Part shown: piece after piece, positions 1-54,282 of the stretch
How the letters are laid out: every line of letters begins with the position of its first letter
Position numbering within the stretch: position 1 is the stretch's first letter
Source: a virus
Strand: one strand, 5' to 3'
Virus record (IMG/VR): IMGVR_UViG_3300035703_000012
Location: 1-64,000 of that record
DNA: 64,000 nucleotides
Notes under the pieces: generated by a model
What the model saw: only the letters and a program-made list of their open reading frames with translations
What the model was told of the DNA's origin: nothing
Database searches by the model: none
Made by a program: the position numbers and the translations under genes

Positions 1-59
1 CCGATAAATACGGGGCGTGGATCCCGTCCAAAGGCTGGTATAGCCAGGTTAGTGGGCCG

Positions 60-554
60 ATGTGGCATGAGAAATGGCCGGGCGGATGGGCGGCTTGCGT
101 AGACGCCGACCTCATCGCCAACGCCCCTACCGACCTAGCCGCCCTGGTGGCCGAGGTGGAGCGGCTGCGGGCTTGGATTACGGAGCTTAGCGGTTTTTAC
201 GATGAAGCACCTGAGCAGAAAGAGAAAATCCCACAAACGCCCCGGCCCCGTAGGCACCTTTTTGAGGAGCTGGAGCAGCCAGTGACCTTGCCTCCTCAGC
301 CGACGGGCCCTCCTCCACGGCCCTCCATCCAAGAGCAGCTGGCCGCTTTGCTGGAAGAAAACAAACAGCTGCGGGCTCAGGTGGAGGCCCTGCAACAAAC
401 CGACGACCAGCGCGACGCTTTCGAGGAAGCGGTTTGGCACGAGGTTTGTAAAACCCTGGCAACCGACAAGCTTCCAAACTCGACATCCGGCCTAGCGGCG
501 TCTATCCAGCAGGCTTGTCGAACGTTTCTCAAGAAAGACATCCCCCATGATTGA
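60..554 (+). CDS. Ead/Ea22-like early protein with coiled-coil C-terminus
   Basis: 164-aa ORF that overlaps the next gene by 8 nt. The motif APTDLAALVAEVERLRAW recurs in 6932..7144. The C-terminal half is Q/E/L-rich. Confidence 0.6.
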   Translation: MWHEKWPGGWAACVDADLIANAPTDLAALVAEVERLRAWITELSGFYDEAPEQKEKIPQTPRPRRHLFEELEQPVTLPPQPTGPPPRPSIQEQLAALLEENKQLRAQVEALQQTDDQRDAFEEAVWHEVCKTLATDKLPNSTSGLAASIQQACRTFLKKDIPHD

Positions 555-1287
555 CCTGACGCCCTTCAAGCAGCGCCTGGAAGGCGTTTCCATCCCGCTT
601 TCGCTTGGAGACGCAGACTTCATCGACGTCCTGGCGCTCGAGCGGGCGGATGCGGAGTTTTTGAAAAACGCCGTCTACGACGTGGCTTTGCTGGTGGACG
701 AAGTCGAGCAGCTTCAAGCGCACGTGCAGCGCCTGCAGACCGAAAACCGGGTGCTGCTGGACCCCCACCAGGCCAAGCTCGTCTCGTTTGCCGACAACAC
801 TTTCACCTTCGAGTCCGAGGTCTTTCGCGTTTGCCTGGCGGGTCTGGTGCAGATGCTCGACGCCTGCGAGGCCGAAAACTACTTGAGCCTGGACTTCGGT
901 GGGCGCACGGACGACGCCGTCAACGTGACGGTTCAGCGGCGCAACCAGCCCACGCCGCACCAGAAGCGCCAGGAAGCCGAAGCCAAGCTCGCCGACATGA
1001 AACAGGCCTACAACGCGCTGGCCGATGAAACGGACCGGCTGCGCGCAAAGCTGGCAAAGCCTGCGCAAGCACCTTCTTCGCTGGAAGGTGCGCCCTACCT
1101 CGCGGCCCTCAAGGCCATCGAGCATGCGCTCAGCGCGCTGGTGGCCGGCAAGCCGCAGCGGGCCAAGTCCTTGCTGTTCATGGCGCTCGGTGCCCACGCG
1201 GGTGAGGCGGACTGGGCGGAGTTTGCCGCTTACCTCGATGCACAACCGCTTTTGCTGAAAGAAGGTCCCCATGCCCAAGACCCCTGA
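547..1287 (+). CDS. hypothetical coiled-coil early protein
   Basis: 246-aa ORF coupled to both neighbours. The segment ALLVDEVEQLQAHVQRLQTEN resembles the Ea22-like motif. Confidence 0.6.
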   Translation: MIDLTPFKQRLEGVSIPLSLGDADFIDVLALERADAEFLKNAVYDVALLVDEVEQLQAHVQRLQTENRVLLDPHQAKLVSFADNTFTFESEVFRVCLAGLVQMLDACEAENYLSLDFGGRTDDAVNVTVQRRNQPTPHQKRQEAEAKLADMKQAYNALADETDRLRAKLAKPAQAPSSLEGAPYLAALKAIEHALSALVAGKPQRAKSLLFMALGAHAGEADWAEFAAYLDAQPLLLKEGPHAQDP

Positions 1288-4773: not shown

Positions 4774-5334
4774 ATGCCCAGCGTGATTGACCTTTCAAGT
4801 GCTTTTGGTCGGGAGGCTGCGGCCACCTGCATGGGGCTGAAGCTGGCGCTGTTTGCCCACAACGACCAGAAGGACCAGCCGCTGGGCGCGCCCACGCAGG
4901 TGGTGTTGCACTGGACGGCTGGCACCTACGCGCAGTGCTGGGACTCCTACCACTTCAACATCGCGTTCGACGCCAAGGCCCCGCGGGCCTGCGTGGTGAA
5001 GGCGCTGTCGCTGAAGCAGAAGGGCCAGCACCTGTCGAAGCGCAACACCGGGGCGATCGGCGTGACGCTGTGCGCGATGGCGAGCAAGAGCCACCCGGTG
5101 CAGAAGCTGCAAGAAGAAGCCGCGGCTGAGCTGTGCGCGGAGCTGCTGTGGCACCACAAGCTGTCGATCGCCCAGCTCACGGACCACGCCCACTGGGCCC
5201 GCATCGACGGGTACTTCCCGCACCGCTGGGACGTGGGCGATCGCTTCGCCGTCATCCGGGCGCTGACGGAGGCCCGGCTGCGCGAGCTGCAGGCAGGCCA
5301 GCGCAAGCCGGCCTACACCCACCTGTTCACCTGA
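4774..5334 (+). CDS. N-acetylmuramoyl-L-alanine amidase (Amidase_2/PGRP-like)
   Basis: VVLHWTAG...YHFNI...NTGAIGVTLC...DHAHW pattern. AGGAGG lies upstream of the ATG. Confidence 0.65.
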   Translation: MPSVIDLSSAFGREAAATCMGLKLALFAHNDQKDQPLGAPTQVVLHWTAGTYAQCWDSYHFNIAFDAKAPRACVVKALSLKQKGQHLSKRNTGAIGVTLCAMASKSHPVQKLQEEAAAELCAELLWHHKLSIAQLTDHAHWARIDGYFPHRWDVGDRFAVIRALTEARLRELQAGQRKPAYTHLFT

Positions 5335-11571: not shown

Positions 11572-13419
11572 TCAGCGCCAGCTCCACGTCACATTGCGCT
11601 CGCATGACAGCTGCCCGATCAGCCTGATGTCCGAGGCCGCAGCGCCCATCATGCCGCCCTCCACCATGCCCGGCTCGAGGTTGCCCTCCAGCTGGGCGAT
11701 CTGCCAGTTGACCACGGCCACGCAGTCGGCCAGGTCCTTGGAGATCTTGCCGCGTCCCGGCACGGCGCTGTCCTTGTTCTTGGGGTGGGCGATCGACTCG
11801 CCGTTGCGCAGCTCGATGTGCTTGAGCTCCTCGATGAGCGTCGGGTGGTTGGGGATGCGCACCAGCCCCGCGTTCAGCCGCGCCCGCAGCATGTCGTAGA
11901 GCTTCTTCTGAAACGGCCCCGAGAAGTGGAACTCCCGGGTGACGACGTTCTCCCGGAACAGCCGCTGGATGCTGCCCGCCGAGTTCCAGTGGTCGAACGT
12001 CAGCCGCTGCATGTTCCGCTTCTTGGCGATCTCGATGAGCACCTCCTCCACGTTGACGAGGTCCACCGGCGCCACCTTGTTGCGGCCGAGCGGCTTGGGC
12101 ATCCACTCCAGCACCGCGTCGATCACCGTCACGATGCCCACCTCGCTCCACTCTGCATGCCCCACCGCAAAGCCGAAGCTGTCGCGCTTGAGGCCGGGGT
12201 CGCAGTGCCCGATGCTGATGACGTTGCTGTGCGTCAGCGGCGTCACCGCCACCTGCAACCCCGCCATCTCCCGCGTCTCCCCCTGAGACGCCCCCTTGGC
12301 CTCGCCCAGCCCCCGGTTGATGACCTGCGGCTGGTGCGCGATCACCGCCTGGGGGTCCCGCCCGGCTGCCGCCTTCTCGATGACGGCCGGCATGAAGAAC
12401 GACGTGGCCGACCCCGGCCGCAGGTTCTCGTAGTCGCGGGCCGCCGCCACGGGGTCCTTGACGTAGTCGCTGGCGATGCCCGAGTCGTCCTTGGAAAGCG
12501 TCGGGTTGAAGTCGAACGTCGTCAAGTCGAAGACCAGACACCCCTGCCGCTGCCGGTCCCAGTCCTCGCGCACGAGCTGCTCCATGAAGTCGCCCTCGCA
12601 CTTCACGGACGAAAGCGCGATGCGCTTGGCCGCGTCCTTGTAGGTGGCCGTCGACTTGCCCACGCGGGTGTAGACGTCCTGGGCGTTGCTCGTATGCCCC
12701 TCGTCGGCGCTGAACATCGCCAGCTCGTCGAAAGCCACCATCACCGCCGTGCGGCCGACGATGGAGGTCGCTTTGGAGTGGCCGCAGGCGATGATGACGC
12801 CCTTGCTCGCGCACTCGATGTCGAGCTCGCGCACCACGATTTCCCCCTGCTCGATCATGTTCTTGAAGAAGGTGGACTCCGTCACGTACTTCTTCACGTA
12901 GTAGAAGATGGTGCCGAGCACCTGCCGCTCTGTGCTGGCGATGACGGTGATGTAGATGGGCGAGCTCTTGGGCACGCCCAGCTCGTGCTGCGGACACGGG
13001 CTCGTGATGTGCTTGAAGAACTCGTAGACGATCGCGAGCGCCACGGAGCTCGACTTGGCGCTGCGCATGCCGGCCTGGAACGTGATGTTCTGGTAGCTGA
13101 AGCGCGGCTTCTCCGGCTTGCCCTCGAGCACCCGCTGCATGTTGGTCTCCGTCAACAGCTGGCTGGGGTCGCGCCAGTTGGTCTTCTCCGACTGGACCCA
13201 CTGGTCGAGTAAGGCCTGCTCCTCGGCGTTCATCGTGTCGCCGAACATCGTCTTGAGAAACACACGCTGGCTGAGAAACAGCGGCACGTCGAAGGCGTCG
13301 ACAATGGTTTCCACGAACTCCACCGGCCCGAGCTGCCGCGCTGCCGCCTGCACCTTGACCAGCTTCGAGCTGACCTGGTCGAGGATGTTGAGGTTCAGGT
13401 TCTTGGCGGGCGTGCTCAT
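11572..13419 (-). CDS. terL: terminase large subunit
   Basis: Walker A-like QAGMRSAKSS, Walker B VMVAFDELA, and RNaseH-like nuclease half HCDPGLKRDSFGFAVGH...KDLADCV. The ATG at 13419 overlaps the upstream stop (ATGA). Confidence 0.9.
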   Translation of the reverse strand: MSTPAKNLNLNILDQVSSKLVKVQAAARQLGPVEFVETIVDAFDVPLFLSQRVFLKTMFGDTMNAEEQALLDQWVQSEKTNWRDPSQLLTETNMQRVLEGKPEKPRFSYQNITFQAGMRSAKSSSVALAIVYEFFKHITSPCPQHELGVPKSSPIYITVIASTERQVLGTIFYYVKKYVTESTFFKNMIEQGEIVVRELDIECASKGVIIACGHSKATSIVGRTAVMVAFDELAMFSADEGHTSNAQDVYTRVGKSTATYKDAAKRIALSSVKCEGDFMEQLVREDWDRQRQGCLVFDLTTFDFNPTLSKDDSGIASDYVKDPVAAARDYENLRPGSATSFFMPAVIEKAAAGRDPQAVIAHQPQVINRGLGEAKGASQGETREMAGLQVAVTPLTHSNVISIGHCDPGLKRDSFGFAVGHAEWSEVGIVTVIDAVLEWMPKPLGRNKVAPVDLVNVEEVLIEIAKKRNMQRLTFDHWNSAGSIQRLFRENVVTREFHFSGPFQKKLYDMLRARLNAGLVRIPNHPTLIEELKHIELRNGESIAHPKNKDSAVPGRGKISKDLADCVAVVNWQIAQLEGNLEPGMVEGGMMGAAASDIRLIGQLSCERNVTWSWR

Positions 13420-13784
13420 CCGGCGTGCACCAGCATCACCGTGCGCGTCTCGCCTTCCGTGTTGGTGTAGTAGAGGTAGGCGTAGTAGCCGAAGCTGTAG
13501 TCCAGCAAGAATATCCAGTCGACCTCCCCAAAGCCCCACACCGCCTCCGTCAAGCCCGTGGCAGCGCTGTGCGCGCCCAGCAGCGTGAACGTCTCGTCGT
13601 AAAGCTGGTAGCCCGCCTCGAGGTCCAGGTCGGGGAGCTCGAAGAACGGGTCGGAGACCTTCACGAACAGCACGTCGTCGGTGTGGGCCAGGGCCCGGTA
13701 CAGCGTGGGGGCCGGCAGCGCGTCAAGCAGATTGGCATCGCCGACCTGCGCGATCCACTGCGCGAGCACAGGCGTCAGCGTCAT
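13416..13784 (-). CDS. hypothetical acidic protein coupled to terL
   Basis: 122 aa with ATGA overlap with terL. It sits where a small terminase would, but no DNA-binding-like features are visible. Confidence 0.55.
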   Translation of the reverse strand: MTLTPVLAQWIAQVGDANLLDALPAPTLYRALAHTDDVLFVKVSDPFFELPDLDLEAGYQLYDETFTLLGAHSAATGLTEAVWGFGEVDWIFLLDYSFGYYAYLYYTNTEGETRTVMLVHAG

Positions 13785-16185: not shown

Positions 16186-16839
16186 TCAAAACCGGTACTG
16201 CAGCGACAGACCCGGCTGCACGGAGACGGGCAACCCTGGCACCGGCGTGTAGCCGAGGGCGGTCTGGGGGCCCAGGTACACACCCACGCCGGCCACCAGC
16301 CTGGGTGCCACCGTCCCGTGGATAGCAAGGCCCAGCACGGGCGCTGGCTGGGGCACGGCGAGCACACCAGCCTGCGCTTCCAGGCTCAGCGGGGGCAACG
16401 CCAGCAGGGTCACGCCGGCCGTCAGGCCCACGCCCGTCGGAGTGGCAAGCAAGCCTGCCGTGAGCCCGGTGGGGGCCGGCTCCCGGTGGTTGACGGTGTG
16501 CGCCTGCGTGGCCTCGGCCAGCGCCACGCTGCGGGTGGCGGCCTGGGTCTGCTGGGTGGTCTCCTCGCGCTGGCGGGTGGTCTCGGAGAGCAGCCGGCCC
16601 GTGGCGGGGTCATAGCGCCGGGTGGTAACGACCTCGCGCGTGCGCCGCTGGCGCTGGGCGTTGTGCTGCGCGTGGACAGCCTTTTGGACCTGGCGGCTGG
16701 TTTTGACCTCCTGCAGCGCGATTTGGGTCAACCCAGATTTGGGACGGGCAGGCCGGGTTTTCTGGAAAAGCGCGAACGCAGCCAGCAGCGCCAGCAGGAG
16801 GCCGAACACCCAGAGCAGTTCGCGCTTAGCCGCGGTCAT
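16186..16839 (-). CDS. membrane protein with N-terminal TM helix and C-terminal ...LQYRF; spanin-position gene
   Basis: TM helix LLWVFGLLLALLAAFALF, then a Q/R/T-rich middle, then a G/P/L/V-rich C-terminal half ending in YRF. It overlaps the holin 3' end by 14 nt. Confidence 0.6.
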   Translation of the reverse strand: MTAAKRELLWVFGLLLALLAAFALFQKTRPARPKSGLTQIALQEVKTSRQVQKAVHAQHNAQRQRRTREVVTTRRYDPATGRLLSETTRQREETTQQTQAATRSVALAEATQAHTVNHREPAPTGLTAGLLATPTGVGLTAGVTLLALPPLSLEAQAGVLAVPQPAPVLGLAIHGTVAPRLVAGVGVYLGPQTALGYTPVPGLPVSVQPGLSLQYRF

Positions 16840-17398
16840 CGGGTGGGTCCGCCGGAGGTGCGGGCTGGGCGTCGGGTGCCGGCTCGAAGTCGAGGCGCTG
16901 CACCAGGCTCTCAGCCAGGGTGGGCAGCTTGGCGTTCTGCAGCTCGCGCGTGAGGCGCTCGAGGTCCATGCCCAGCCGGTCGACCAGCGCGTCGATGAAG
17001 ACCGTCTCCTGGCCCCGCAGCGTGCGGATCACGCGCAGGTTCTCCAAGATGGAGAGCGCCTCTTTCAAGACGTAACCCGTCAGCACCGCCGTCTCGAAGA
17101 ACGCCGACATCGGCCCGAACGGCAGCACCAGCGTGAGCGTGTGCAGCACGGCGTAGACCACCAAGTAGTACACGGCCCGGTCGAGCGCGTGCCCGAAGCG
17201 CGTCGAGGCCAGCTTCTTGAGCAGCTTGGCCTTGTAGATGCCCGTGCCGAAGTCGATGAACAAGAAAGCCATCAGGCCCAGCAGCAGGTTCACGTCGAAG
17301 AACGAGAACAGCGGCGCCAGCACGACGGAAAGCAGCTTGAGCGTGGCAGGGATGTCCATCTGGCTGGCGTGCGCCCAGCGATCGAAAAACTGCGTCAT
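16826..17398 (-). CDS. holin (holin family 4-like)
   Basis: 190 aa with 3-4 TM helices (LLSVVLAPLFSFFDVNLLLGLMAFLFIDF, AVYYLVVYAVLHTLTLVL, FETAVLTGYVLKEALSILEN). The ATGA overlaps the upstream gene. Confidence 0.8.
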   Translation of the reverse strand: MTQFFDRWAHASQMDIPATLKLLSVVLAPLFSFFDVNLLLGLMAFLFIDFGTGIYKAKLLKKLASTRFGHALDRAVYYLVVYAVLHTLTLVLPFGPMSAFFETAVLTGYVLKEALSILENLRVIRTLRGQETVFIDALVDRLGMDLERLTRELQNAKLPTLAESLVQRLDFEPAPDAQPAPPADPPDDRG

Positions 17399-17997
17399 GC
17401 GTCCACCTCCAAAGGAAACTGCAGGCCGAAAGGCTGGGGCATGGCGGTCATGCTGTAGCGGGCGTTGAACTGGGTCTCCATGAAGGCCTTGAGGTCGCGG
17501 GCGCTGGCGTGGTGGTGCACCCCGCTGGTGTCGACGCTCGTGAGCCGCCCGTCGCCGCGACGAATGACGCAGACGGCGTGCGTGGCCGAAGCAGGCCGAC
17601 CCTGGAGCATCACCACCTGGGCCTGACCCAGGTTGGCGTACTCGGCGAGGTAAGCCGCCAGCAGGGCCACGTCGTCGCAGTCCGCGGCCACGTGCGCCGG
17701 CCAGAAGTACTGGTAGCCCGACTCGCTGTAAGCCCGGTTGTTCTCCGCGTGCAGCAGCAAGCGCAGCGGGTGGATGGTGTGGTCGAGCCAGCCGCGCGTG
17801 CTGCCCTCGAGCCACGGCAGCGCCGGATCACCCGTGTAAGGGATGTAGCGCCGGATGTAGTCCCACAGGCCTTCGACGGTCTTGAACTGCGGCACAAGCG
17901 CCATGGCCAGCCGCTCGTCCTGGCGGTCGAACAGCCGGGAGACGAAGTTCCGCCAGGCTCCCCAAACCCGAAGCCTGCGTGGCATGTGGTTTTGCAT
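17395..17997 (-). CDS. BTLCP/LapG-like transglutaminase-fold cysteine peptidase; candidate endolysin
   Basis: ADCDDVALLAAYL (Cys), THAVCVIR (His) and TSVDTS (Asp) occur in the order typical of bacterial transglutaminase-like Cys proteinases. The ATG at 17997 follows AAGGGGAGAGG. Confidence 0.55.
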   Translation of the reverse strand: MQNHMPRRLRVWGAWRNFVSRLFDRQDERLAMALVPQFKTVEGLWDYIRRYIPYTGDPALPWLEGSTRGWLDHTIHPLRLLLHAENNRAYSESGYQYFWPAHVAADCDDVALLAAYLAEYANLGQAQVVMLQGRPASATHAVCVIRRGDGRLTSVDTSGVHHHASARDLKAFMETQFNARYSMTAMPQPFGLQFPLEVDA

Positions 17998-18597: not shown

Positions 18598-18876
18598 TTA
18601 GGCAGCCTGCTCAGCTTCTGGCCTGGCGGGCTCTTCCACGACGGGTGCCACAAACACGTCGGCCGCCGGGTCGTAGCTGTAGCCTGCGCCCGGGTAGCAG
18701 CCGCGGAAGGTGCCGTTGTAGCTGCACTGAACCCAGCGCCCGCCCAGCAGGTCGTGGCAGAGCTGCGCGCCCTTTGCCTCGCTCTCCTGGCCCTGCTCGT
18801 CGAGCATGTCGGCGTTGTTCACGACCGTCACGCGCAGGACGGTGTTGGTGTCATCGAGTTCTGCAAAGTGTGCCAT
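18598..18876 (-). CDS. conserved phage hypothetical protein (MAHFAELD... type)
   Basis: MAHFAELDDTNTVLRVTVVNN...WVQCSYNGTFRG.YPG.GYSYDP..DVFV is a pattern I recall from many phage genomes. Its function is unknown. Confidence 0.6.
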   Translation of the reverse strand: MAHFAELDDTNTVLRVTVVNNADMLDEQGQESEAKGAQLCHDLLGGRWVQCSYNGTFRGCYPGAGYSYDPAADVFVAPVVEEPARPEAEQAA

Positions 18877-18882
18877 GCGATG

Positions 18883-19491
18883 TTACCCCGTGTAGGTGAA
18901 GGTGCCGTTGCCCGTGAAGGTGTGGACGGTGAAGCCGTTGCCGCTGGTGATGGTGCCGCCCGTGGCCTTGGTGCCGCCGGGGTAGCGGACGATGACGATG
19001 CCGGAGCCGCCGTTGCCGCTGTTGTAGTTTGCAGCAACGGCCCCAGTCGAAGCTCCACCCCCACCCCCACCCGTATTGGCGGTGCCGTTTCCGCCTGCTG
19101 CGACGTTTCCGCCGTTTCCGCCACCGCCAACGCCACCACGGCCGGCAAAAACGCTGGCAACACCAGAGCCGCCACCGCCGCCATAACTAGCTTGAGAGCC
19201 AGAAATGGACGAGGGTAACCCGGTCCCTCCGTTTCCACGTTCGGCCGGCGACAAGATTCCACCACCGCCACTCGGATACTCGTTTGCAGTACCGATGGTC
19301 CAGCCGTAACCGCCGTTAGAACCTTGTCCAGCAGTCCCCGACAGCGCGGTGCGGCTACTCGTTCCGCCACCGCACCCGCCGCTCACGAGCGCGCCTCCGC
19401 CGCCAGTGGCAGTGAATGAGCCAAAAGAAGTATTGCTGCCGTTTGCGCCAGGGGAGTTAGTATTACCAGCTCCACCTGCACCGATTGTCAC
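18883..19491 (-). CDS. glycine-rich domain fibre protein
   Basis: 202 aa, more than 35% Gly. It ends GNGGSGIVIVRYPGG...FTYTG. GTG start. Confidence 0.6.
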   Translation of the reverse strand: MTIGAGGAGNTNSPGANGSNTSFGSFTATGGGGALVSGGCGGGTSSRTALSGTAGQGSNGGYGWTIGTANEYPSGGGGILSPAERGNGGTGLPSSISGSQASYGGGGGSGVASVFAGRGGVGGGGNGGNVAAGGNGTANTGGGGGGASTGAVAANYNSGNGGSGIVIVRYPGGTKATGGTITSGNGFTVHTFTGNGTFTYTG

Positions 19492-19586: not shown

Positions 19587-19985
19587 TTAGACAGCATCCA
19601 GCGCCAGGTCAACCGCCTTGATGACAGCAGCCCGTGCGCCCTGCATCGCGGCCTCGTCGCGGTGCTGGGTGCCGAAGGCGATGGCCTGCTCCTGGCTCAT
19701 CGGCGCGCGGCCGATGCCACCCGGCGCGTGCGGCTGCGCCCGCAGCACAAGGCCCGTGGCCGTGTCGCGCAGCAGGTACATGTGGCCGCCTTCAGGGAGG
19801 TCGCCGTTCGCCTTCCAGTGGGCGGCCGGGATGCCCTGAATGTCGGACACGCCATCCCACACCTCGACGCTGACCTTGGCCTGTTCGGCGGCGAAGATGG
19901 CGGCCTGATCGATGCCGGGCAGCAAGGCGCGCACGGCGGCAACGTCCTCACCGAGTTCCTTGGCGATTTCACGAGCGGTGAACAT
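19587..19985 (-). CDS. hypothetical protein
   Basis: 132-aa ORF. Confidence 0.55.
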   Translation of the reverse strand: MFTAREIAKELGEDVAAVRALLPGIDQAAIFAAEQAKVSVEVWDGVSDIQGIPAAHWKANGDLPEGGHMYLLRDTATGLVLRAQPHAPGGIGRAPMSQEQAIAFGTQHRDEAAMQGARAAVIKAVDLALDAV

Positions 19986-19997
19986 TGGTTTCCCTCC

Positions 19998-21095
19998 TCA
20001 GAAGATGAGCACGTCGGTTGTGACGGATGAGACAATCTTGTCTCCGTTTTTACAGAACACGATGCGGCCTTGCGCCTGTGTCGTGGTGTTGGTAAGGGTT
20101 GCGTCAGAGTTGTATGAGATGGCGATGCTATCGCGCGTCACCGTGTAGTCGTTCGAGAGAGTTGTGTCGGGGTCATATTTTTGAGTTGTAAGCAGGCCCC
20201 CAGATCCGTTATCCATTCCGCCGTAAACATAAATATTAACACCTACAGCAGCCATGGCGTGCCTGTTTCTATTGTTTGACGCAGGAAGTTGCAGCCATAG
20301 ATTGCTTAGCGGATAGTATGCCATCGTGGTGGTGTATGGTGAAGTTAAGCCGCCGACGCAATATATGACGCCCGCTGCCGTGGCTGCCTTGTGTGCATAT
20401 TGCGCCACTGGAGCAGCGGCAAGCGTTGACCATACATTCATCGAAGGCGAGAACTTGTAGGTTGTTGTTGTTGCGGCTGGTGTGGTGCTGCGACCGCCAA
20501 AACAAAATACTCCGCCATCGCCGTGCGATGCGGCAGGCTCGTGGCGTGCCTCTGGAACGGCTGTTTTCGAGGTCCAGGTATTAGCGCCGGGGTCGTATTC
20601 TTCAACCGTTGCAACAGTGGCGGTTGTGTAACCGGCGATGGAGTATACTTTGCCGGCAAATGCAGCGACGCCGAGATCATAACGAGCTGTGCCTAAATTG
20701 GCCTTCGCCGTCCAGGTATTGGCGGTGGGGTTGTATTGCTCAGTAACCGCGCTCGCTGCGGCGACATAGCCGCCGACAGAGTAGACGTATGTCCCGTCAA
20801 AAGCACCGCCGAGTGAATATCTCGCAGTGTTCATGCTGGCTCTAGATGACCAGGAGTTGGCTACTGGATCATAGCGTCTCGTAACAGCGGTGTTTGAACC
20901 GCTCGCAAAACCGTTAACCCCACCAAACACATAGGCATAGGTTCCGTCTCCCGCACCGGCCGTAAGTCGGTGATAGTCAGGAAACGCCGCCATCGTGCTC
21001 CAGGCGCCGGCCGCATAGCCAGCCGTCAGAGTCGTTATGGTCGGGTTCAGCTTGGCGGCCGTGATCGTCTCGCCCGTGGTCCAGGTGTAAGGCAT
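19998..21095 (-). CDS. Kelch-repeat beta-propeller tail fibre/receptor-binding protein
   Basis: N-terminal fibre motif MPYTWTTGETITAAKLN, then at least 5 repeats of the type Y.PxxNxW....l..aR......a....vY..GG. GC is markedly lower than in the neighbours. Confidence 0.75.
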   Translation of the reverse strand: MPYTWTTGETITAAKLNPTITTLTAGYAAGAWSTMAAFPDYHRLTAGAGDGTYAYVFGGVNGFASGSNTAVTRRYDPVANSWSSRASMNTARYSLGGAFDGTYVYSVGGYVAAASAVTEQYNPTANTWTAKANLGTARYDLGVAAFAGKVYSIAGYTTATVATVEEYDPGANTWTSKTAVPEARHEPAASHGDGGVFCFGGRSTTPAATTTTYKFSPSMNVWSTLAAAPVAQYAHKAATAAGVIYCVGGLTSPYTTTMAYYPLSNLWLQLPASNNRNRHAMAAVGVNIYVYGGMDNGSGGLLTTQKYDPDTTLSNDYTVTRDSIAISYNSDATLTNTTTQAQGRIVFCKNGDKIVSSVTTDVLIF

Positions 21096-21244: not shown

Positions 21245-21598
21245 TCAGCCCACCACGGCTGCGGACAACCGAGCCGGCTGCGACCAGTTGTTCCACTGCG
21301 TGCCGTTGTAGACCAGGGACACGGCGCCGTAGTTGTTGTTGAGAACGTAGCTCGCAGCCCCGTCGATGTTCTTGCCGTTCCCCGCCACGGTGACGTTGTT
21401 GGTCGCCGCGTCACCCTTGCCGTCTTTCACCGTGACGACCTCGCCAACGGTGGGAGACGCCGGCAGGGTCACGGTGGTCGCGGAGCCCGTCTCCTTGTTC
21501 ACGATCACCACGTCGTCCAGCGGGTCCACCGTGTAGGAGGCCCCGGAGGTCACGACGGCGACCTTGTTCTTGATGACCGCGTTGCTGATGTTGCGCAT
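21245..21598 (-). CDS. small fibre-associated beta-domain protein
   Basis: VTLPASPTVGEVVTVKDGKGDAATNNVTVAGNGKNIDG....VLNNNYGAVSLVYNGTQW is paralogous to 18073..18564. Confidence 0.6.
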   Translation of the reverse strand: MRNISNAVIKNKVAVVTSGASYTVDPLDDVVIVNKETGSATTVTLPASPTVGEVVTVKDGKGDAATNNVTVAGNGKNIDGAASYVLNNNYGAVSLVYNGTQWNNWSQPARLSAAVVG

Positions 21599-21617: not shown

Positions 21618-22475
21618 TCAGGAGACGGCTGCGACCGTCCGGGGTGCTTCAAGGGCGAGGGACTTGGCCGCGCCGCCGTCCGCGTAGGGACCGGACAGGC
21701 TTACGGCCAGGTGCGTGAGGTTCTCGACGGCCCCGGCCGAGCCCTCGAACCAGGTGTTGAACGACAGGCTGATGCGCGTGCTGTCCGTCGTCACGGGCGG
21801 CACCATGTGCTCCAGTTCCGACGGGAACAGCACGAGGTCTCCCGCCGCGACGGGAATCCACCAGGAGTCGCTGTTCCAGGGGTTGAACTCGGCCTGCGTG
21901 AACGGCACGCGCTTGTAGCCGCCACGAAAAAACATGATGCGGTCGGTGTCACCGCTAGCCGCCACGTAGTACACCCCGCTGATGAGGCTGCCCGGGTGGG
22001 CGTGCTTGTGATGCCACTGGCCCTGCGTCGTGAAGTTCAGCCACGCCTGGGTCGGCAGGAACTTCACGTCGCCCACCGGGGCGATCGTGGTCTTGACGTA
22101 CTCCGCCAGCGCGGCGTCGATCTCCTCGTACAGCACCACCAGCCCGGGCGCCGCCCCCATCGCCGACAGCGCCGCATGGGCCCACGCCGCCACGTCGTCG
22201 CAGTCCACCGGCAGGCGCGCCGCCGTGCCGGCCTCCAGCGCCGCCTGCAAAACCTCGGGGTGCCAGTAGAAGTCCACCACCCCGTACACCGGATCCCCCG
22301 TGTAGGTGTAGCGGGCCGCCAGGTAGTCCCAGGCGGCATGCGGCGACGTGAACGCCGGCAACGGGCGACGCGGGACGCCCGCGAGCCAGGCGACCAGGCG
22401 CGAGGCCGCGCGCTTGCTGGCGTCCAGCAGCCGCACGGCGGCGGGAACGAACCGACCGAACACCGCCTCCCTCAC
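21618..22475 (-). CDS. fusion of a truncated BTLCP-like N-terminal segment and a 2OG-Fe(II) oxygenase
   Basis: The N-terminus YTYTGDP...VDCDDVAAWAHAAL matches 17395..17997 but lacks its His/Asp part. The C-terminus QAWLNFTTQGQWHHKHAHPG...FPSELEHMV...RISLSFNTWF is paralogous to 22677..23303. The GTG start overlaps the upstream TGA. Confidence 0.65.
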   Translation of the reverse strand: MREAVFGRFVPAAVRLLDASKRAASRLVAWLAGVPRRPLPAFTSPHAAWDYLAARYTYTGDPVYGVVDFYWHPEVLQAALEAGTAARLPVDCDDVAAWAHAALSAMGAAPGLVVLYEEIDAALAEYVKTTIAPVGDVKFLPTQAWLNFTTQGQWHHKHAHPGSLISGVYYVAASGDTDRIMFFRGGYKRVPFTQAEFNPWNSDSWWIPVAAGDLVLFPSELEHMVPPVTTDSTRISLSFNTWFEGSAGAVENLTHLAVSLSGPYADGGAAKSLALEAPRTVAAVS

Positions 22476-22684
22476 GGCAGGCGGTTCAGCGTGAAGGTGG
22501 TGTTCGCGGTGGCAGGGGCCGTGACGCTGGTGACGCTGGTCGCGAGCGACGTGCCGGCAGCGCTGGGGTTGTAGGTGTGCGTGTGCGCGTTGAAGTCCGT
22601 CGCCAGCTCGTTGTAAAGCTCGGCGTGGCGCTGCACGATGGCCTCCAGCCGCAAAAGCCGCATCTTCAGTTCGTGGTTATCCAT
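22472..22684 (-). CDS. hypothetical 70-aa protein
   Basis: Coiled-coil N-terminus and S/T/A-rich tail. It is coupled at both ends. Confidence 0.5.
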   Translation of the reverse strand: MDNHELKMRLLRLEAIVQRHAELYNELATDFNAHTHTYNPSAAGTSLATSVTSVTAPATANTTFTLNRLP

Positions 22685-23303
22685 AGGGCCCTCCCACCTG
22701 ACAGGCCAGGCCCGTCAGGCTGTCCACGCTGCCTGCCTCTCCGTTGAACCACGTGTTGATCGCCAGGCTGATGCGCGTGTGTCCATCCGCCATGTTCGGG
22801 GCCACGTGGTGCTCCAGGTAGCTCGGGAAAATCACGAGGTCCATCGGCCCGACCGGGATCCACCAGCTCGGGCTGTTCCACGGGTTGAAGTCCGCGGCCT
22901 CGAACATCAAGCGATCGTAGCCGGAGCGGTGGAAGTAGATGCGATCCGTCTCCTTGTTGGCCGACACGTACAGGCAGGCCGACAGCCACGAGCACGGGTG
23001 CGCGTGGCGGTGGTGCCACTGGCCCTTCTCGTTGAAGTTCAGCCACGACTGCGTGATGGCGATGCGGGGCTTGGTGACGGGCACGACCACGCCGTCCACG
23101 TAGGCCTGAAGGTGCTCCAGCACCAGCGCCTTGAGGTCCGCGAGCCGGGGGTCGTGCAGCACCAGCCGGTAGGCGCTGGTCTGGTTGCCCTCGTTGGGCT
23201 TCTTCTCGGCCCCCAGTTCCTCGATTGCCGCTCGCTCCTCTGGCGTCAACTCGCGCAGCGTGCGCCGCCCCACGGCGGTCGGAAACAGGTTGATGATTTC
23301 CAC
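22677..23303 (-). CDS. 2OG-Fe(II) oxygenase (small phage/cyanophage-type family)
   Basis: GTG at 23303 lies 5 nt after AGGAG. IINLFPT..., SWLNFNEKGQWHHRHAHP, FPSYLEHHV, RISLAINTWF. Confidence 0.7.
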   Translation of the reverse strand: MEIINLFPTAVGRRTLRELTPEERAAIEELGAEKKPNEGNQTSAYRLVLHDPRLADLKALVLEHLQAYVDGVVVPVTKPRIAITQSWLNFNEKGQWHHRHAHPCSWLSACLYVSANKETDRIYFHRSGYDRLMFEAADFNPWNSPSWWIPVGPMDLVIFPSYLEHHVAPNMADGHTRISLAINTWFNGEAGSVDSLTGLACQVGGPYG

Positions 23304-23320
23304 GATGGCTCCTGTCTGGC

Positions 23321-23899
23321 CTACCAGGCCCACGAGACGAACGAGTAGCGCGTCCCCGCCGTGATCTCCAAGACCTCGTGCGGGTAGAGGAAGCAGGACG
23401 GCCACACCAGCACCTGGCCCGCCTTGAGCGCGTAGGGCTTGCCGCAGAGCACCAGATCGCCACCCTCGTAGCCGTCGTTGAGGTTGCCGACGATGGACAG
23501 CGCCGGGATGCCCTTGGCCTGCCCGTCGAACAGGGTGTGGATGTGGTCGGTATGCGGGCGCATTACGGACCCGACGGGGTAGCGGTTCAGGCGCACGTTG
23601 CTGCACGCCGTCACCTGCGCATGCGCCATCAGCTCTCGGCTGTAGCGCATCACGGCATCGACCACCACATCCGTCAGGGCCTTGAATAGCTCCGGCTGGT
23701 CGTCAACAGGACGAACGTCCAGCTCTTTCTCTGCTTCGCTGTGCGAGTGTTGCGTCGCCGGGTTGTACCACTGGTGCTTGGTCCAGCCCTCCAGCGCTGC
23801 GACAGCGGTCGCCTCGGCGCTCAGGTCATAGTTGTACAGCCGGATGTAGCCGTCCAGGGTCTGCGCGGGCGCTGGCGGCGCCTCAAGCTGCTGGGTCAC
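23321..23899 (-). CDS. prolyl-4-hydroxylase-like 2OG-Fe(II) oxygenase
   Basis: RPHTDH (HxD), YPHEV (distal His) and TRYSFVSW (RxS). Confidence 0.75.
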   Translation of the reverse strand: MTQQLEAPPAPAQTLDGYIRLYNYDLSAEATAVAALEGWTKHQWYNPATQHSHSEAEKELDVRPVDDQPELFKALTDVVVDAVMRYSRELMAHAQVTACSNVRLNRYPVGSVMRPHTDHIHTLFDGQAKGIPALSIVGNLNDGYEGGDLVLCGKPYALKAGQVLVWPSCFLYPHEVLEITAGTRYSFVSWAW

Positions 23900-24278
23900 A
23901 CATTACCTCCAGGTCGTAGCGGGCCAGTTCTTGCCCGTCAGGGTCGCGAATAATCAGCACGTCGCCTTCGACGTGCGGCGTGTTGCCGGCGAGCTGGGAA
24001 ACGGGCGGACCAGGAACGTGTAGCACGTCCACCTTGGGGTCGCCCGCCTCGTCGAGCACCGGCTCGCCCTGCTCGTCGAGCACGGGCACCCGCACCTCAA
24101 TGGGTTCGCCCGGGACGTGCCGCAGGGCGAACAGCAGCGCGTTCACCTCATTGATGATGGGCCTGGTGGCGCGCAAGATGCGCGCCGCAGGGCTTTCTTC
24201 TCGGAGGATGCCGAGGATGTCGTGATCGGGATGGTTGGCGCGGACGCGAACGCTGGCGCCGTCATGAATGATCCACAT
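23883..24278 (-). CDS. hypothetical protein
   Basis: 131-aa ORF that overlaps the P4H-like gene by 17 nt. Confidence 0.55.
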   Translation of the reverse strand: MWIIHDGASVRVRANHPDHDILGILREESPAARILRATRPIINEVNALLFALRHVPGEPIEVRVPVLDEQGEPVLDEAGDPKVDVLHVPGPPVSQLAGNTPHVEGDVLIIRDPDGQELARYDLEVMCDPAA

Positions 24279-24281
24279 ATC

Positions 24282-25745
24282 TTACACCTGCCACTCGATA
24301 CGGATGTAGCCCGGGGCGCCGGGGCCGCCAGCGCCGCCCGTGCCTCCTGCGCCGCCGATCCCTACCTGGGTCGTGGCGTTGCTCGGGGTACGCACTGCGG
24401 TGCCGCCGGCCCCGCCGCCTCCCCCGCCTCCCCCGCCTCCCCCGCCAGCTCCCCAGCCGCTTGAGTAGCCGCCGGCCCCACCGTTGCCACCGGCCCCACC
24501 GTTGCGTCCAGGCTGGTCAGAGGCCCCGCCGCCTCCTCCGCCGCCCCCGGCGCCCCCTGATCCGGTCGCCGCGCCCCCGGCTCCCCCCAGGCCACGCCCC
24601 TCATTTCCTGTGGCCGAAAACAGGATCCCCTGCGGGAAATTGCCCCACGGAGCAGCATGCACCGGATATGAGCCGGACGAGGTTCCCGCGGCACCGGCCC
24701 CACCGGCACCACCAAGCAGCATGGCGGCGTAGATATAACCCGCCGCCCCGCTGCTTCCTCCGGCCCCGCCGCCTCCCCCGCCGCCCCCGCCATAGACGTA
24801 TTGCGCGGGCGTCCCCCACTGGACGGCAGTGGTCTGGCCGCTGCGACCGCCGCTGGCGCCGGCACCGCCCGCAATTTCAGCCATCGTGGTCAGATGGAGG
24901 CCCCCCGTGAAGCCCACGGAGCCACCACCCGCGGTGTAATACGCAGGTTGGGTGGTGTTTGCATCGGAGCCAGAGCCGCCCACTCCGTACCTGTAGGCGT
25001 TTTGCCAGCCGCTGGACGGATGATTGGTTGCGGTCCCGACGTTGGCACCGGCACCGCCGGCGCCGGGCAGGATGAAGTAGTCGGTGTAGATGATGGGGTT
25101 GCTGACGTTGGTGCCGTTGGTGTTCATGGCCCCACCGACCACAGCCGTAAGCGTAAAGAACGTGCCACCGCTGCCGCCGACGCCGCCCGAGCTTGCGGGC
25201 TGGTAGTTGCCGTAAGGCCCGACGATGCCGGTCACGGCCCCGGCGCCGCTGCCGCCGCGCGCCATCACCAAGCTGGGGGCGCTCGGAGTTCCGAATGTGG
25301 ACGTTTGCCCCGTTGCGCCAGCCCCACCGAAAGGGGCGGGCAAGCCCTCAGTGGCCGTTATGGGGTTGTACTGGGTTCCACCAGTACCAGCGGCACCGCC
25401 AGCGCCGCCGGCACCCACCGAGTAGGTCATCTCAGCGCCAGGCGTGAGCGTGATGGGCACCTCCAGCAGAGTGGTGCCAGAACCACCGCCTGCGCCGCCG
25501 TAGCCGCCAATTCCGTAACTTTGATTCAGAACCCCTTGGCGACTCGTGAATGGCGAGGGTGATTGCGGGAAAACATCTCCGTAGAGGCCGCCCTGGCCGC
25601 CGCGCCCCCCGCCCCCACCACCCCCGCCACCCACGATGGTGATCCGGGCCTTCGTCACGCCGGGGGGGACGGTCCACGTGCCGCTGCCGGACGTAAACTC
25701 CTCATAGCGCCAGTTGTTGCTCTCGCCGCTTTGGATGATGGGCAT
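24282..25745 (-). CDS. glycine-rich domain tail fibre protein
   Basis: GTWTVPPGVTKARITIVGGGGGGGGGRGG ... GAPGYIRIEWQV. 487 aa with long poly-Gly tracts. Confidence 0.7.
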   Translation of the reverse strand: MPIIQSGESNNWRYEEFTSGSGTWTVPPGVTKARITIVGGGGGGGGGRGGQGGLYGDVFPQSPSPFTSRQGVLNQSYGIGGYGGAGGGSGTTLLEVPITLTPGAEMTYSVGAGGAGGAAGTGGTQYNPITATEGLPAPFGGAGATGQTSTFGTPSAPSLVMARGGSGAGAVTGIVGPYGNYQPASSGGVGGSGGTFFTLTAVVGGAMNTNGTNVSNPIIYTDYFILPGAGGAGANVGTATNHPSSGWQNAYRYGVGGSGSDANTTQPAYYTAGGGSVGFTGGLHLTTMAEIAGGAGASGGRSGQTTAVQWGTPAQYVYGGGGGGGGGAGGSSGAAGYIYAAMLLGGAGGAGAAGTSSGSYPVHAAPWGNFPQGILFSATGNEGRGLGGAGGAATGSGGAGGGGGGGGASDQPGRNGGAGGNGGAGGYSSGWGAGGGGGGGGGGGGAGGTAVRTPSNATTQVGIGGAGGTGGAGGPGAPGYIRIEWQV

Positions 25746-52458: not shown

Positions 52459-54282
52459 TTAAGCCAGCCGGATGCTGGCACGCAGCACGCGGTTGATGTT
52501 GAACTGGGTCTTGTCGTTCGGGTACAGCGGCTCGATGAAGATGTCGACGTAGCGCTGACCGGACGCCCGGACCGCCGGCGGGTTGTTGGAGTCGTTCGAG
52601 ACCGTGGGGTCGTAGCCCGCCAGCTGGCGGTTGGCCACCCGGTTGCCCAGGTAGGCGTCGATGCCCTGCTGGATGGTGGCATCCAGCGCCGCGTTGCTCG
52701 GCTCGGACTTGGTGAACTGGAAGTTGAAGAAGATGTCCGTGCGGATGGTGTCGTAGATGCGCCGCACGCAGTTCCAGTACCAGGCCGGGTCGCTGGCCGT
52801 CGTGCGGCCATTCAGGCAGTGGAACGCGCCCGAGACGGGGTCCGCGATGAGGGCCTCGCAGCGGTAGCGCGTGATGTCGTTCCAGGCGCTGACGGTGGCC
52901 GGGGTGTCGAGCTCGGTGATGCCCTTGATGGTGGGCGAGCTGGTGCGGGCCGCCGTGGAGATGTGCGCCGGCGTCACGACGCAGTGGCCGGCGTAGAGGG
53001 CCGCCGGATCCACCGAGAAGCGGCGCGCTTTGGTCTGGCGGGCGCTGGAGCCCCAGCCCACCACCATGACCGTGCGCTGCGAGTCGGGGATGCGGGAGGC
53101 CGCCCGCAGGCCCGGCAGGTCCGCCTGGGTGGTGCCGCGCGGCGCGGAGAGGATGGCCTGGCGCAGGCCCACCATCTCGCCCATCTCGGCATCGCCCGCC
53201 TCGGCCTGGGCGACCAGCGTGGCGTTGAGCGCCCACTGGTCGACGCCGTCGGGCTTGAGGCCCGGGCAGATGATAAAGGTGGCCTGGATGGCCTTGTAGG
53301 CGTCGATGGCGCGGATGAAGTCCTCGGTCGTGAGCGTGGGGTCGCCGTCGTGGCCGCCCGTGAAGCTGAAGACGCCTTCCGTGAACTCCTGGCCGGCCTC
53401 GTCGAGGACCACACCCCGGGCGAGCATGGAGGAGCGCAGCGGCGCGAACTTGTCCTCGTCGTAGACGTCAGCCAGCGAGAGCTCCGAGAAGGTCTCGGTG
53501 ATGCCGCGCTCGGCGTTGGTGAGGATCAAGGAGAACTTGTCGGCGTCGAGCGAGCGCACGACCTCGACCTTGGTGTTGCCGTTGGCGGCCGTGCCGGGCG
53601 AGAGCTCGACCAGGCGCAGCACGTCGGTGAGCACACCGCCGACCTTGGCCTGGAGGGTGACCTGGGCCGACTGGGGCGCATCGAAGCCGCCTTCCAGCTC
53701 GGCGTCGGCCGGCACCGTCAGGCCCGTGTGGCCCGAGACCGAGAGGCCCACCACGATGTCGTTGCCGGCATCACCCGCCTCGGCGGCGGTGAAGACGATG
53801 CTGCCCGTCGTGCCGGAAGCGGTGCCCACGGCCGCCGTGAAGGGCAGACCGTCGGTGTCGGCGACGAGGGCCACCAGGTCTGCGACGATCTCGCTGGCTG
53901 TCTTGCCCGTGAAGTCGGTGTCCGAGACCAGGGTCGTGGCGACGCCGCCCGCGACCGCGTACTCGACGCCGATGCTGCCGTCCCCCGCGGCGGTGCCGAC
54001 GAGCTGCAACGTGACCTTGGCCTTGCGGGCGGCGGGCAGCACGCGCGAGATCAAGATGTCGTTGACGCCCTGGTCGAGCACGGCCTGCATGTGCACGGAG
54101 CCCACGGAGGTGTCGGCCCCGAAGAGCTTCAGGGCGTCGTTGGCGTCCGCCACCGTCACGCCCGCGGGCCCGTAGCGGAACACCCCGGCCAGCGCCACCC
54201 GATCGACGGTGGCCGGCCGCACGGGCCGAGGGCCCACGTTGCCCTCGAAGAAGCTGAAGCTGGGGAACAGCTGGAAAGCCAT
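52459..54282 (-). CDS. tail sheath protein
   Basis: 607 aa. The C-terminal conserved half contains VGWG...SVDPAALYAGH...AWNDITRYRCEALI...NGRT....PAWYWNCVRRIYD. Confidence 0.9.
   Translation of the reverse strand: MAFQLFPSFSFFEGNVGPRPVRPATVDRVALAGVFRYGPAGVTVADANDALKLFGADTSVGSVHMQAVLDQGVNDILISRVLPAARKAKVTLQLVGTAAGDGSIGVEYAVAGGVATTLVSDTDFTGKTASEIVADLVALVADTDGLPFTAAVGTASGTTGSIVFTAAEAGDAGNDIVVGLSVSGHTGLTVPADAELEGGFDAPQSAQVTLQAKVGGVLTDVLRLVELSPGTAANGNTKVEVVRSLDADKFSLILTNAERGITETFSELSLADVYDEDKFAPLRSSMLARGVVLDEAGQEFTEGVFSFTGGHDGDPTLTTEDFIRAIDAYKAIQATFIICPGLKPDGVDQWALNATLVAQAEAGDAEMGEMVGLRQAILSAPRGTTQADLPGLRAASRIPDSQRTVMVVGWGSSARQTKARRFSVDPAALYAGHCVVTPAHISTAARTSSPTIKGITELDTPATVSAWNDITRYRCEALIADPVSGAFHCLNGRTTASDPAWYWNCVRRIYDTIRTDIFFNFQFTKSEPSNAALDATIQQGIDAYLGNRVANRQLAGYDPTVSNDSNNPPAVRASGQRYVDIFIEPLYPNDKTQFNINRVLRASIRLA

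Follow-up and report, generated by a model that had tools for sequence, protein, structure and literature searches.

Two intact 2OG-Fe(II) oxygenases and a chimeric peptidase-like/oxygenase gene in the Gly-rich fibre cassette of an uncultured myovirus

Introduction

Few "auxiliary" genes are as common in aquatic phages as those for Fe(II)- and 2-oxoglutarate (2OG)-dependent oxygenases, and the type represented by PF13759 has no assigned substrate. Prolyl 4-hydroxylase (P4H)-like relatives comprise PHD/EGLN and the bacterial P4H, and the viral P4H of PBCV-1 is also counted here. The mimivirus collagen lysyl hydroxylase L230 and the PBCV-1 enzyme are reportedly viral proteins that hydroxylate structural proteins, and we know of no modification demonstrated for any phage of this kind. 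In this study we describe three open reading frames (ORFs), here named A, B and C, which lie among the fibre genes in positions 1 to 64,000 of the IMG/VR virus record IMGVR_UViG_3300035703_000012, a stretch of 64,000 nucleotides (nt) that is called the window in the following. Gly-rich domains can serve as receptor-binding tips in the gp38-type phage adhesins (PMC12032242). Our reading, to which we give a probability of roughly 0.55, is that the oxygenases B and C belong to a cassette of Gly_rich_2 fibre genes and would act on a protein of the fibre module, while A is an accidental chimera.

The oxygenases B and C

ORFs A, B and C are all found on the minus strand at the positions listed in Table 1, and their translations hold the motifs quoted in a first-pass annotation that a model had made from the letters of the window. 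C is well above the threshold of PF13640 (E 8.9e-11, 43 bits, Pfam cutoff 27), matches phrog_61 with an E-value of 2.4e-24, and has the residues H116-x-D118, H174 and R184-x-S186 that are invariant across five homologues (alignment; loci L003, L082, L164 and L165), so that the full P4H-type motif set claimed for it is indeed present. No solved P4H or PHD structure was matched by the sequence of C with phmmer, and "P4H-type" should therefore be read as a fold-family label only. Between C and A or B there is no detectable sequence relationship.

B is assigned to PF13759 with an E-value of 5.8e-19 and 68.8 bits (gathering cutoff 27 bits) and matches phrog_81 over residues 1–191. It keeps two N-terminal family motifs, LFPxPV and N.GN.TS, and has the full-length single-domain architecture of about 200 amino acids (aa), with 95% aa identity to the counterparts in L004 and L005. 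The proposal that B and the C-terminal half of A are paralogues was confirmed, since both belong to PF13759 and are 47% identical over 190 aa (E 2e-57). Residues H155, H156, H158, H160, H223 and R234-x-S236 (A numbering) are conserved to at least 90% among 39–43 sequences and are all present in A as well as in B; the candidate metal and 2OG ligands, on which the first-pass annotation had made its proposal depend, are thus conserved in proper alignments. In the PDB the sequence of B matches only 3bvc and 2rg4, two structural-genomics entries annotated as uncharacterised. The PF13759 family has an invariant His cluster, HHxHxH (residues 155–160 of A), where 2OG oxygenases usually carry HxD/E, and 2rg4 retains the first, third and fourth His of it, hinting that the family may have a His-only metal site. 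Judged by their complete motifs, B and C are intact Fe(II)/2OG-type oxygenases with predicted activity, and they are new members of well-populated phage families, that is, ordinary phage oxygenases.

Table 1. Features of the window mentioned in the text
Feature	Position	Strand	Remarks
Portal	60833..62524	minus	
Major head protein	57907..59052	minus	
Tail sheath	52459..54282	minus	
Gly-rich fibre-like protein, 487 aa, cassette head	24282..25745	minus	N-terminus matches phrog_863 and phrog_2295
131-aa ORF	23883..24278	minus	between the Gly-rich gene and PF13640; no Pfam/PHROG match
C, intact 2OG-Fe(II) oxygenase, 192 aa	23321..23899	minus	PF13640 (2OG-FeII_Oxy_3) / phrog_61
B, intact PF13759 protein, 208 aa, GTG start	22677..23303	minus	2OG-FeII_Oxy_5, TIGR02466
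70-aa ORF between B and A	22472..22684	minus	no Pfam/PHROG match; 8-nt overlap with B, 4-nt overlap (GTGA) with A
A, 285 aa	21618..22475	minus	PF13759 over residues 144–240, E 5.8e-21, 75.2 bits
A N-part, residues 1–118	22122..22475	minus	5' fragment of a transglutaminase-like Cys-peptidase-like gene; Cys92 (DCDDVA) kept
Recombination junction	22120..22123	minus	...CTGTACGAGGAG / ATCGACGCC..., in frame
A C-part, residues 119–285	21618..22121	minus	PF13759 core of P0002-type allele, from codon 61
117-aa Phage_depo_C-like ORF	21245..21598	minus	
Kelch-repeat gene	19998..21095	minus	six-bladed, Kelch_1 E 3.9e-35
132-aa ORF	19587..19985	minus	
202-aa Gly_rich_2 ORF, N-terminally truncated domain	18883..19491	minus	PF21722 E 8.3e-9, model positions 62–225 of 226
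92-aa phrog_7759 protein	18598..18876	minus	phrog_7759 E 2.4e-23
Intact diverged peptidase-like paralogue (Cys-His-Asp)	17395..17997	minus	just upstream of holin
Holin	~16826..17398	minus	PF05105
N-terminal-transmembrane protein	16186..16839	minus	
Terminase large subunit-like gene	11572..13539	minus	nearest GenBank relatives Microcystis phage Ma-LMM01 group, 31% identity
Homologue of the L174 endolysin-like ORF	4774..5334	plus	

The Gly_rich_2 fibre cassette

The 487-aa protein at the head of the cassette has no Pfam match of its own, but its N-terminus aligns with those of the corresponding L082 and L165 proteins, which match PF21722 (Gly_rich_2). The oxygenase genes do not lie directly downstream of it, as had been stated, since the 131-aa gene intervenes, and homologues of this ORF hold the same position in L003, L082, L164 and L165. 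The 70-aa ORF is also conserved, with 87–89% identity in L004/L005 and 54% in L003 (tblastn). The genes, for all of which translational coupling had been suggested, are tightly spaced, with overlaps of 17, 8 and 4 nt and gaps of 17–19 nt. We suggest that a full cassette would consist of a Gly-rich gene, a small ORF, PF13640, PF13759, in some cases another small ORF, and a transglutaminase-like Cys peptidase.

The order 131-aa ORF – PF13640 – PF13759 – (small ORF) – peptidase-like gene is found in L003 and L082, and the PF13640 gene stands immediately upstream of the PF13759 gene also in L164 and L165. Shorter or end-cut contigs hold partial cassettes, namely L004/L005, which lack the upstream end, and L164 and L165 with 131-aa ORF – PF13640 – PF13759. 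A Gly_rich_2 gene heads the cassette wherever upstream sequence exists (L082, L164 and L165), and the PF13759 proteins of these cassettes are only 48–95% identical to B. A second arrangement, Gly_rich_2 – phrog_21526 – PF13759 – phrog_7759, is present in the cultured phage DSL-LC04 and in an abundant freshwater lineage, that of L152 and some 130 contigs like it, and a podovirus-like contig has the order Gly_rich_2 – phrog_7759 – PF13759. In seven lineages, namely the window, L082, L164, L165, L152, L001 and L002, a Gly-rich ORF precedes PF13759 at a distance of at most 2.3 kb; in the six lineages other than the window this ORF (30–37% Gly) is above the PF21722 cutoff, whereas the 487-aa ORF of the window is below it. 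With a cassette defined as a PF13759 gene within about 2.5 kb, on the same strand, of a PF21722 gene in a tail-fibre region, the window, these six lineages and L220, L222, L228 and L229 are included.

As a partly independent sample, 22 IMG/VR loci (L212–L233) were picked solely by the Gly_rich_2 protein of the window, which also matches phrog_2295 (202-aa ORF, E 1.2e-20). PF13759 is present in four of them and the PF13640–PF13759 pair in one, always beside fibre genes, while phrog_7759 is found directly downstream of the Gly_rich_2 gene in 18 of the 22, as in the window. Conversely, phrog_7759 directly downstream of PF13759 was seen in 127 loci that represent only about four lineages; its adjacency in 127 of 128 cases was considered as a striking figure but rejected as inflated, 135 of 161 loci being one lineage at ≥70% identity. 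The tighter partnership is that of Gly_rich_2 with phrog_7759 rather than that of PF13759 with phrog_7759, and the former looks like a fibre/chaperone-type pair. A homologue of phrog_7759 is also located among the tail-fibre genes of Synechococcus phage Bellamy. Literature searches found no functional study of Gly_rich_2 or of fibre hydroxylation.

The chimeric gene A

Residues 1–118 of A match stand-alone proteins of 172–178 aa (P0006 with 91% and P0010 with 86% identity), and against codons 1–118 of the L004/L005 gene, which is intact and encodes 175 aa (P0006), this part is 91.5% identical in aa and about 95% in DNA. The stand-alone counterparts continue with ...SLRGAHCVCVY...AIDTNG..., which holds the conserved His and Asp, whereas A stops at E118, past the Cys of DCDDVA and ahead of these two residues in the alignment, just as the first-pass annotation had described it. 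Residues 119–267 match stand-alone PF13759 proteins of 221 aa (P0002, 90%) that have 60 extra N-terminal residues, and 11 of the 58 PF13759 positions conserved to at least 85% are missing from A, including the invariant F7, N37, G39 and N40. The relatives L003, L004/L005 and L082 encode two separate complete genes in place of the fusion.

A itself was recorded once, on a 168,796-bp JGI contig. Among 145 hits in 5.8 billion protein clusters the only full-length match of A is to itself, the other hits covering at most 61% of the query, and exact look-ups of A, P0002 and P0010 in a contig index gave no match. In a profile search of 1.84 billion representatives, which found 162 members of the peptidase-like family, no peptidase-like protein joined to an oxygenase was seen except A. 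The domain fusion noted earlier is accordingly real in the sequence but not a meaningful architecture: it is unique to this contig, relatives have separate genes, and it sits on a breakpoint. A is a one-off product of two truncated genes, neither a designed bifunctional enzyme nor a conserved architecture.

The structure prediction that had been asked for gave a confident oxygenase core (AlphaFold2, per-residue confidence score pLDDT 81–93), but a poor N-part (35–75) for which the alignment had only three homologues, so that the low score is weak evidence of misfolding. With the model of the core, Foldseek retrieved 3bvc and 2rg4 at E 2e-9 and then generic 2OG oxygenases. With Cys as its only catalytic residue of the peptidase type, A cannot be a Cys-His-Asp peptidase, and the activities lost in A would be backed up by the intact copies, B and the diverged paralogue at 17395..17997.

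The position of the junction is sharply defined. From 24029 down to exactly 22121 the window is 94–95% identical in DNA to L004/L005, a stretch that takes in C, B and the 70-aa ORF and ends with codon 118 of the gene that is intact, with 175 aa, in those two contigs; past 22121/22122 it is instead 91.6% identical over 475 nt to L082 10000–10474 (blastn), which is the single PF13759 gene of that phage (P0002) from about codon 61 (codons 61–209). At the crossover the parental sequences share only the two nt GA, within a patch of 29 nt with about 66% similarity. Synteny with L003, L004, L005 and L082 breaks at the same place: the phrog_1394 gene that comes next after the peptidase gene in L003/L004/L005 has no homologue in the window, and the gene content downstream of A is unlike that of any relative. 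Taken together these alignments show A to be the outcome of an illegitimate, in-frame recombination at a mosaic boundary within a heavily reshuffled fibre region. Codon 118 of the peptidase-like gene of the cassette was fused with codon 61 of a PF13759 allele that is xenologous and stems from a related phage lineage.

Other origins were considered and rejected. A simple deletion between adjacent genes does not agree with L082, where PF13759 comes before the peptidase gene, nor with L003/L004/L005, where the peptidase gene is followed by a phrog_1394 protein and no oxygenase, and these gene orders indicate that A is a mosaic joint and not a deletion between neighbours. It had also been proposed that the N-part of A duplicates 17395..17997; a resemblance exists (31% identity over 77 columns, pairwise E 5e-6), but the source is the P0006 subfamily with its 91.5% identity, and a local duplication was discarded. 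Collapse of the assembly on a shared repeat is unlikely with two common nt at the junction.

The transglutaminase-like peptidase family

Members of the peptidase-like family are nearly all stand-alone proteins of 165–200 aa. YTGDP, DCDD, a His and the Asp of DT.G are near-invariant in the family, and the positions C107, H140 and D156, conserved to at least 90%, are all occupied in 17395..17997 and in the stand-alone relatives, while A has only the Cys. For 17395..17997, the N-part of A and nine close relatives there was no Pfam match even at E≤10. The AlphaFold model of 17395..17997 has a pLDDT of 85.6, and its top PDB neighbours in Foldseek are vasohibin 1 and 2 (VASH1/2), CPR-C4 and Legionella LapG, at weak scores (E 0.01–0.07, TM-score about 0.4). 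The values for LapG (4fgp) are E 0.045, probability 0.97 and TM-score 0.41–0.43, with similar and likewise weak scores for vasohibin and CPR-C4, and in a profile alignment with CPR-C4, at a weak E of 0.1, the Cys and His of the two coincide. Among 82 distant members detected by profile, five match DUF553, two Transglut_core and one Peptidase_C93 (PF06035, E 6.5e-5). The family thus appears to belong to the transglutaminase-like cysteine peptidase superfamily (Pfam clan CA-like), possibly with a fold of the vasohibin/CPR-C4/LapG type, without being a member of Pfam BTLCP. The earlier label "BTLCP-like" is therefore apt in its wide sense of transglutaminase-like, by the Foldseek and distant-member matches, but not as Pfam membership.

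One metagenomic protein of 305 aa, P0163, has a complete Cys-His-Asp peptidase-like domain with a fibre-like C-terminal extension, an architecture that ties the family to phage fibres independently. In the window, the paralogue 17395..17997 is found right upstream of the PF05105 holin and the N-terminal-transmembrane protein. In L174 the peptidase-like gene precedes three ORFs, one of 101 aa, one endolysin-like and one of 107 aa; the window homologue of the endolysin-like ORF is located far off and on the opposite strand.

Late region and the surroundings of A

The window comes from the genome, about 169 kb long, of an uncultured myovirus with high GC. Its GC content is about 0.66, which is far above expectation for the Ma-LMM01 group, the nearest known relatives of the terminase, and megablast gave no match at the DNA level of the region to GenBank phages. 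The late genes are on the minus strand in the order portal – head – sheath – baseplate – fibres – lysis, where large baseplate and fibre proteins follow the sheath and precede the cluster of fibre-like genes. Past the lysis genes comes the terminase-like gene, and this gene and the portal are at opposite ends of the late region.

In L174 one continuous fibre ORF (10..1248) has the 117-aa Phage_depo_C-like ORF next to A as the counterpart of one end and the 202-aa Gly_rich_2 ORF as that of its C-terminal part, and between them the window has the Kelch-repeat gene and the 132-aa ORF. The fibre gene seems to have been split by an insertion. With a GC content of 0.55 and 0.58 in third codon positions, against about 0.66 and 0.85–0.93 in its neighbours, the Kelch gene is probably a recent foreign acquisition within the fibre cluster. 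A low-GC gene that splits a fibre ORF is a further mark of recombination near A and supports the interpretation of A as a chimera.

Discussion

B and C would be made late together with the fibres and, while these are assembled, would oxidise a side chain of some protein of the fibre module. Hydroxylation would be the simplest form of this, and the Gly-rich proteins, phrog_7759 and the 131-aa protein are candidate substrates. A fibre-linked role is supported, but not proved, by the recurrent neighbourhood. Several points weigh against our proposal. Oxygenases are missing from 18 of the 22 sampled Gly_rich_2 loci, which indicates that they are dispensable, optional accessories of Gly_rich_2/phrog_7759 modules, and in the T4-like cyanophage S-B64 the PF13759 gene adjoins psbA and DNA endonuclease V, among metabolic genes and not fibres. 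Published work treats phage 2OG oxygenases as metabolic or DNA-repair genes, and a literature search found no functional study of PF13759/TIGR02466 and no characterised member. On the side of the chimera, the junction is known from one assembly only; A has neither stop nor frameshift and retains its frame and translational coupling; and the ratios of non-synonymous to synonymous substitutions (dN/dS) against the nearest relatives, 0.39 in the N-part and 0.19 in the C-part, are not above those of the neighbouring intact genes, although the divergence behind these values is mostly older than the fusion and they are no test of decay. Since the dN/dS is like that of the neighbours and frame and coupling are kept, A might have a retained function, and the fusion event is either recent or tolerated.

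The main rival to fibre tailoring, which we hold to be possible though unlikely, is that the oxygenases are host-directed auxiliary genes, the role commonly ascribed to cyanophage 2OG-Fe(II) oxygenases, acting on a metabolite, a nucleic acid or a host protein such as a translation factor, and that their location reflects the fibre region as a hyperplastic place prone to morons. Both families are classed by PHROG as "moron, auxiliary metabolic gene and host takeover", homologues of PF13759 occur in 224 phage records, mostly of T4-like cyanophages, and among the fold neighbours are small-molecule enzymes and a Pseudomonas P4H whose structure was determined as a complex with EF-Tu. The non-structural genes beside the S-B64 homologue, the presence of PF13759 in just four of 22 Gly_rich_2 loci and the foreign low-GC Kelch gene housed in the same fibre region of the window also agree with such a role. 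However, the order of the cassette beside Gly_rich_2 is kept across lineages in which the PF13759 proteins are only 40–55% identical, on myovirus- and podovirus-like contigs, which exceeds what is expected from random insertion of morons, and between oxygenase and fibre genes there is little space or even overlap. The fibre-tailoring idea of the first-pass annotation keeps the Gly_rich_2 linkage in several lineages on its side, but is restrained by the sample of 22 loci and the metabolic context in S-B64. A wider version, that the PF13640 and PF13759 pair, the Cys peptidase and the small ORFs form a dedicated maturation system for receptor-binding Gly_rich_2 fibres which would first oxidise and then process or crosslink them, with A as a natural "retargeting" experiment, is in our opinion rather doubtful; if true, it would be a class of post-translational modification of phage virions without earlier description.

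As to A, a functional new fusion, where the 118 N-terminal residues would dock the oxygenase core onto the normal substrate of the peptidase, appears improbable. The gene is in frame, coupled and without stop or frameshift, every oxygenase motif residue is kept, dN/dS is not raised, the part containing YTGDP and DCDD is the best conserved of the peptidase-like family, and P0163 shows that a whole peptidase-like domain can be joined to a fibre-like extension. On the other hand the fusion is confined to a single contig in the 5.8 billion clusters and 1.84 billion representatives, the transglutaminase-like fold is cut mid-way with low AlphaFold2 confidence in the N-part, 60 N-terminal residues of the oxygenase, four of them invariant, are removed, and most of the divergence used for dN/dS predates the event. 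Less credible still is a chimera of assembly or sequencing from two co-occurring related phages. L082 and L174 do come from one metagenome (3300035703) holding both parental types, public metagenomes contain close relatives of both parental genes, the L174 contig begins inside the fibre ORF that is the counterpart of the 117-aa gene beside A, suggesting local strain variation, and besides the single assembly the junction 32-mer is absent from IMG/VR. Against this, two shared nt give a k-mer assembler no basis for a join, the reading frame is kept exactly across the junction, and both sides differ by 5–9% from every available relative, so that two known contigs have not been pasted together. 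In addition window 22266..23492 is matched at 100% identity by a Logan contig of 1227 nt from SRR11566518 (L211), which runs from the end of C through B and the 70-aa ORF to codon 70 of A and stops 145 nt before the junction; the same genotype can be recovered from public raw reads, and at least the left side is reproducible. A is most likely a tolerated recombination scar.

A is a clean case of illegitimate recombination at a mosaic boundary of tail fibres, and cautions against taking one-off architectures for designed domain fusions. For the oxygenases, one clade of PF13759 travels with Gly_rich_2, phrog_7759 and a transglutaminase-like peptidase, which gives a concrete and testable hypothesis on the substrate; a confirmation would add enzymatic oxidation to the few modifications known from phage virions, and would bear on receptor binding and host range. 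To our knowledge the link between a PF13759 subclade and Gly_rich_2 fibre genes has no prior description, and we regard the cassette as a useful lead of moderate interest.

Compared with known systems, C is like the P4H-like oxygenases of PF13640/phrog_61 in its Pfam score above the cutoff and in the HxD...H...RxS pattern, but differs from P4H and PHD in having no sequence-level match to solved members, so that prolyl specificity is at most a possibility. The window resembles mimivirus L230, the PBCV-1 P4H and the gp38 adhesins in concept, with a virus 2OG oxygenase beside a Gly-rich virion or fibre protein; it differs from the collagen system of L230 by having no collagen-like G-X-Y repeats. 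The peptidase-like family has the Cys (DCDD), His and Asp in the same order as LapG/BTLCP, the vasohibins and CPR-C4, but the phage proteins are small, stand-alone, of about 175 aa and placed in fibre or lysis regions, and what A retains of the family ends with the Cys helix. PF13759/TIGR02466/phrog_81 (PDB 2RG4 and 3BVC) is represented at full length by B, and the C-part of A shares the core motifs HHxHxH, H...RxS, WW and FPS while lacking the first 60 residues of the family. From PF13759 at large, which is common in T4-like cyanophages and pelagiphages, the subclade of the window is set apart by its linkage to Gly_rich_2.

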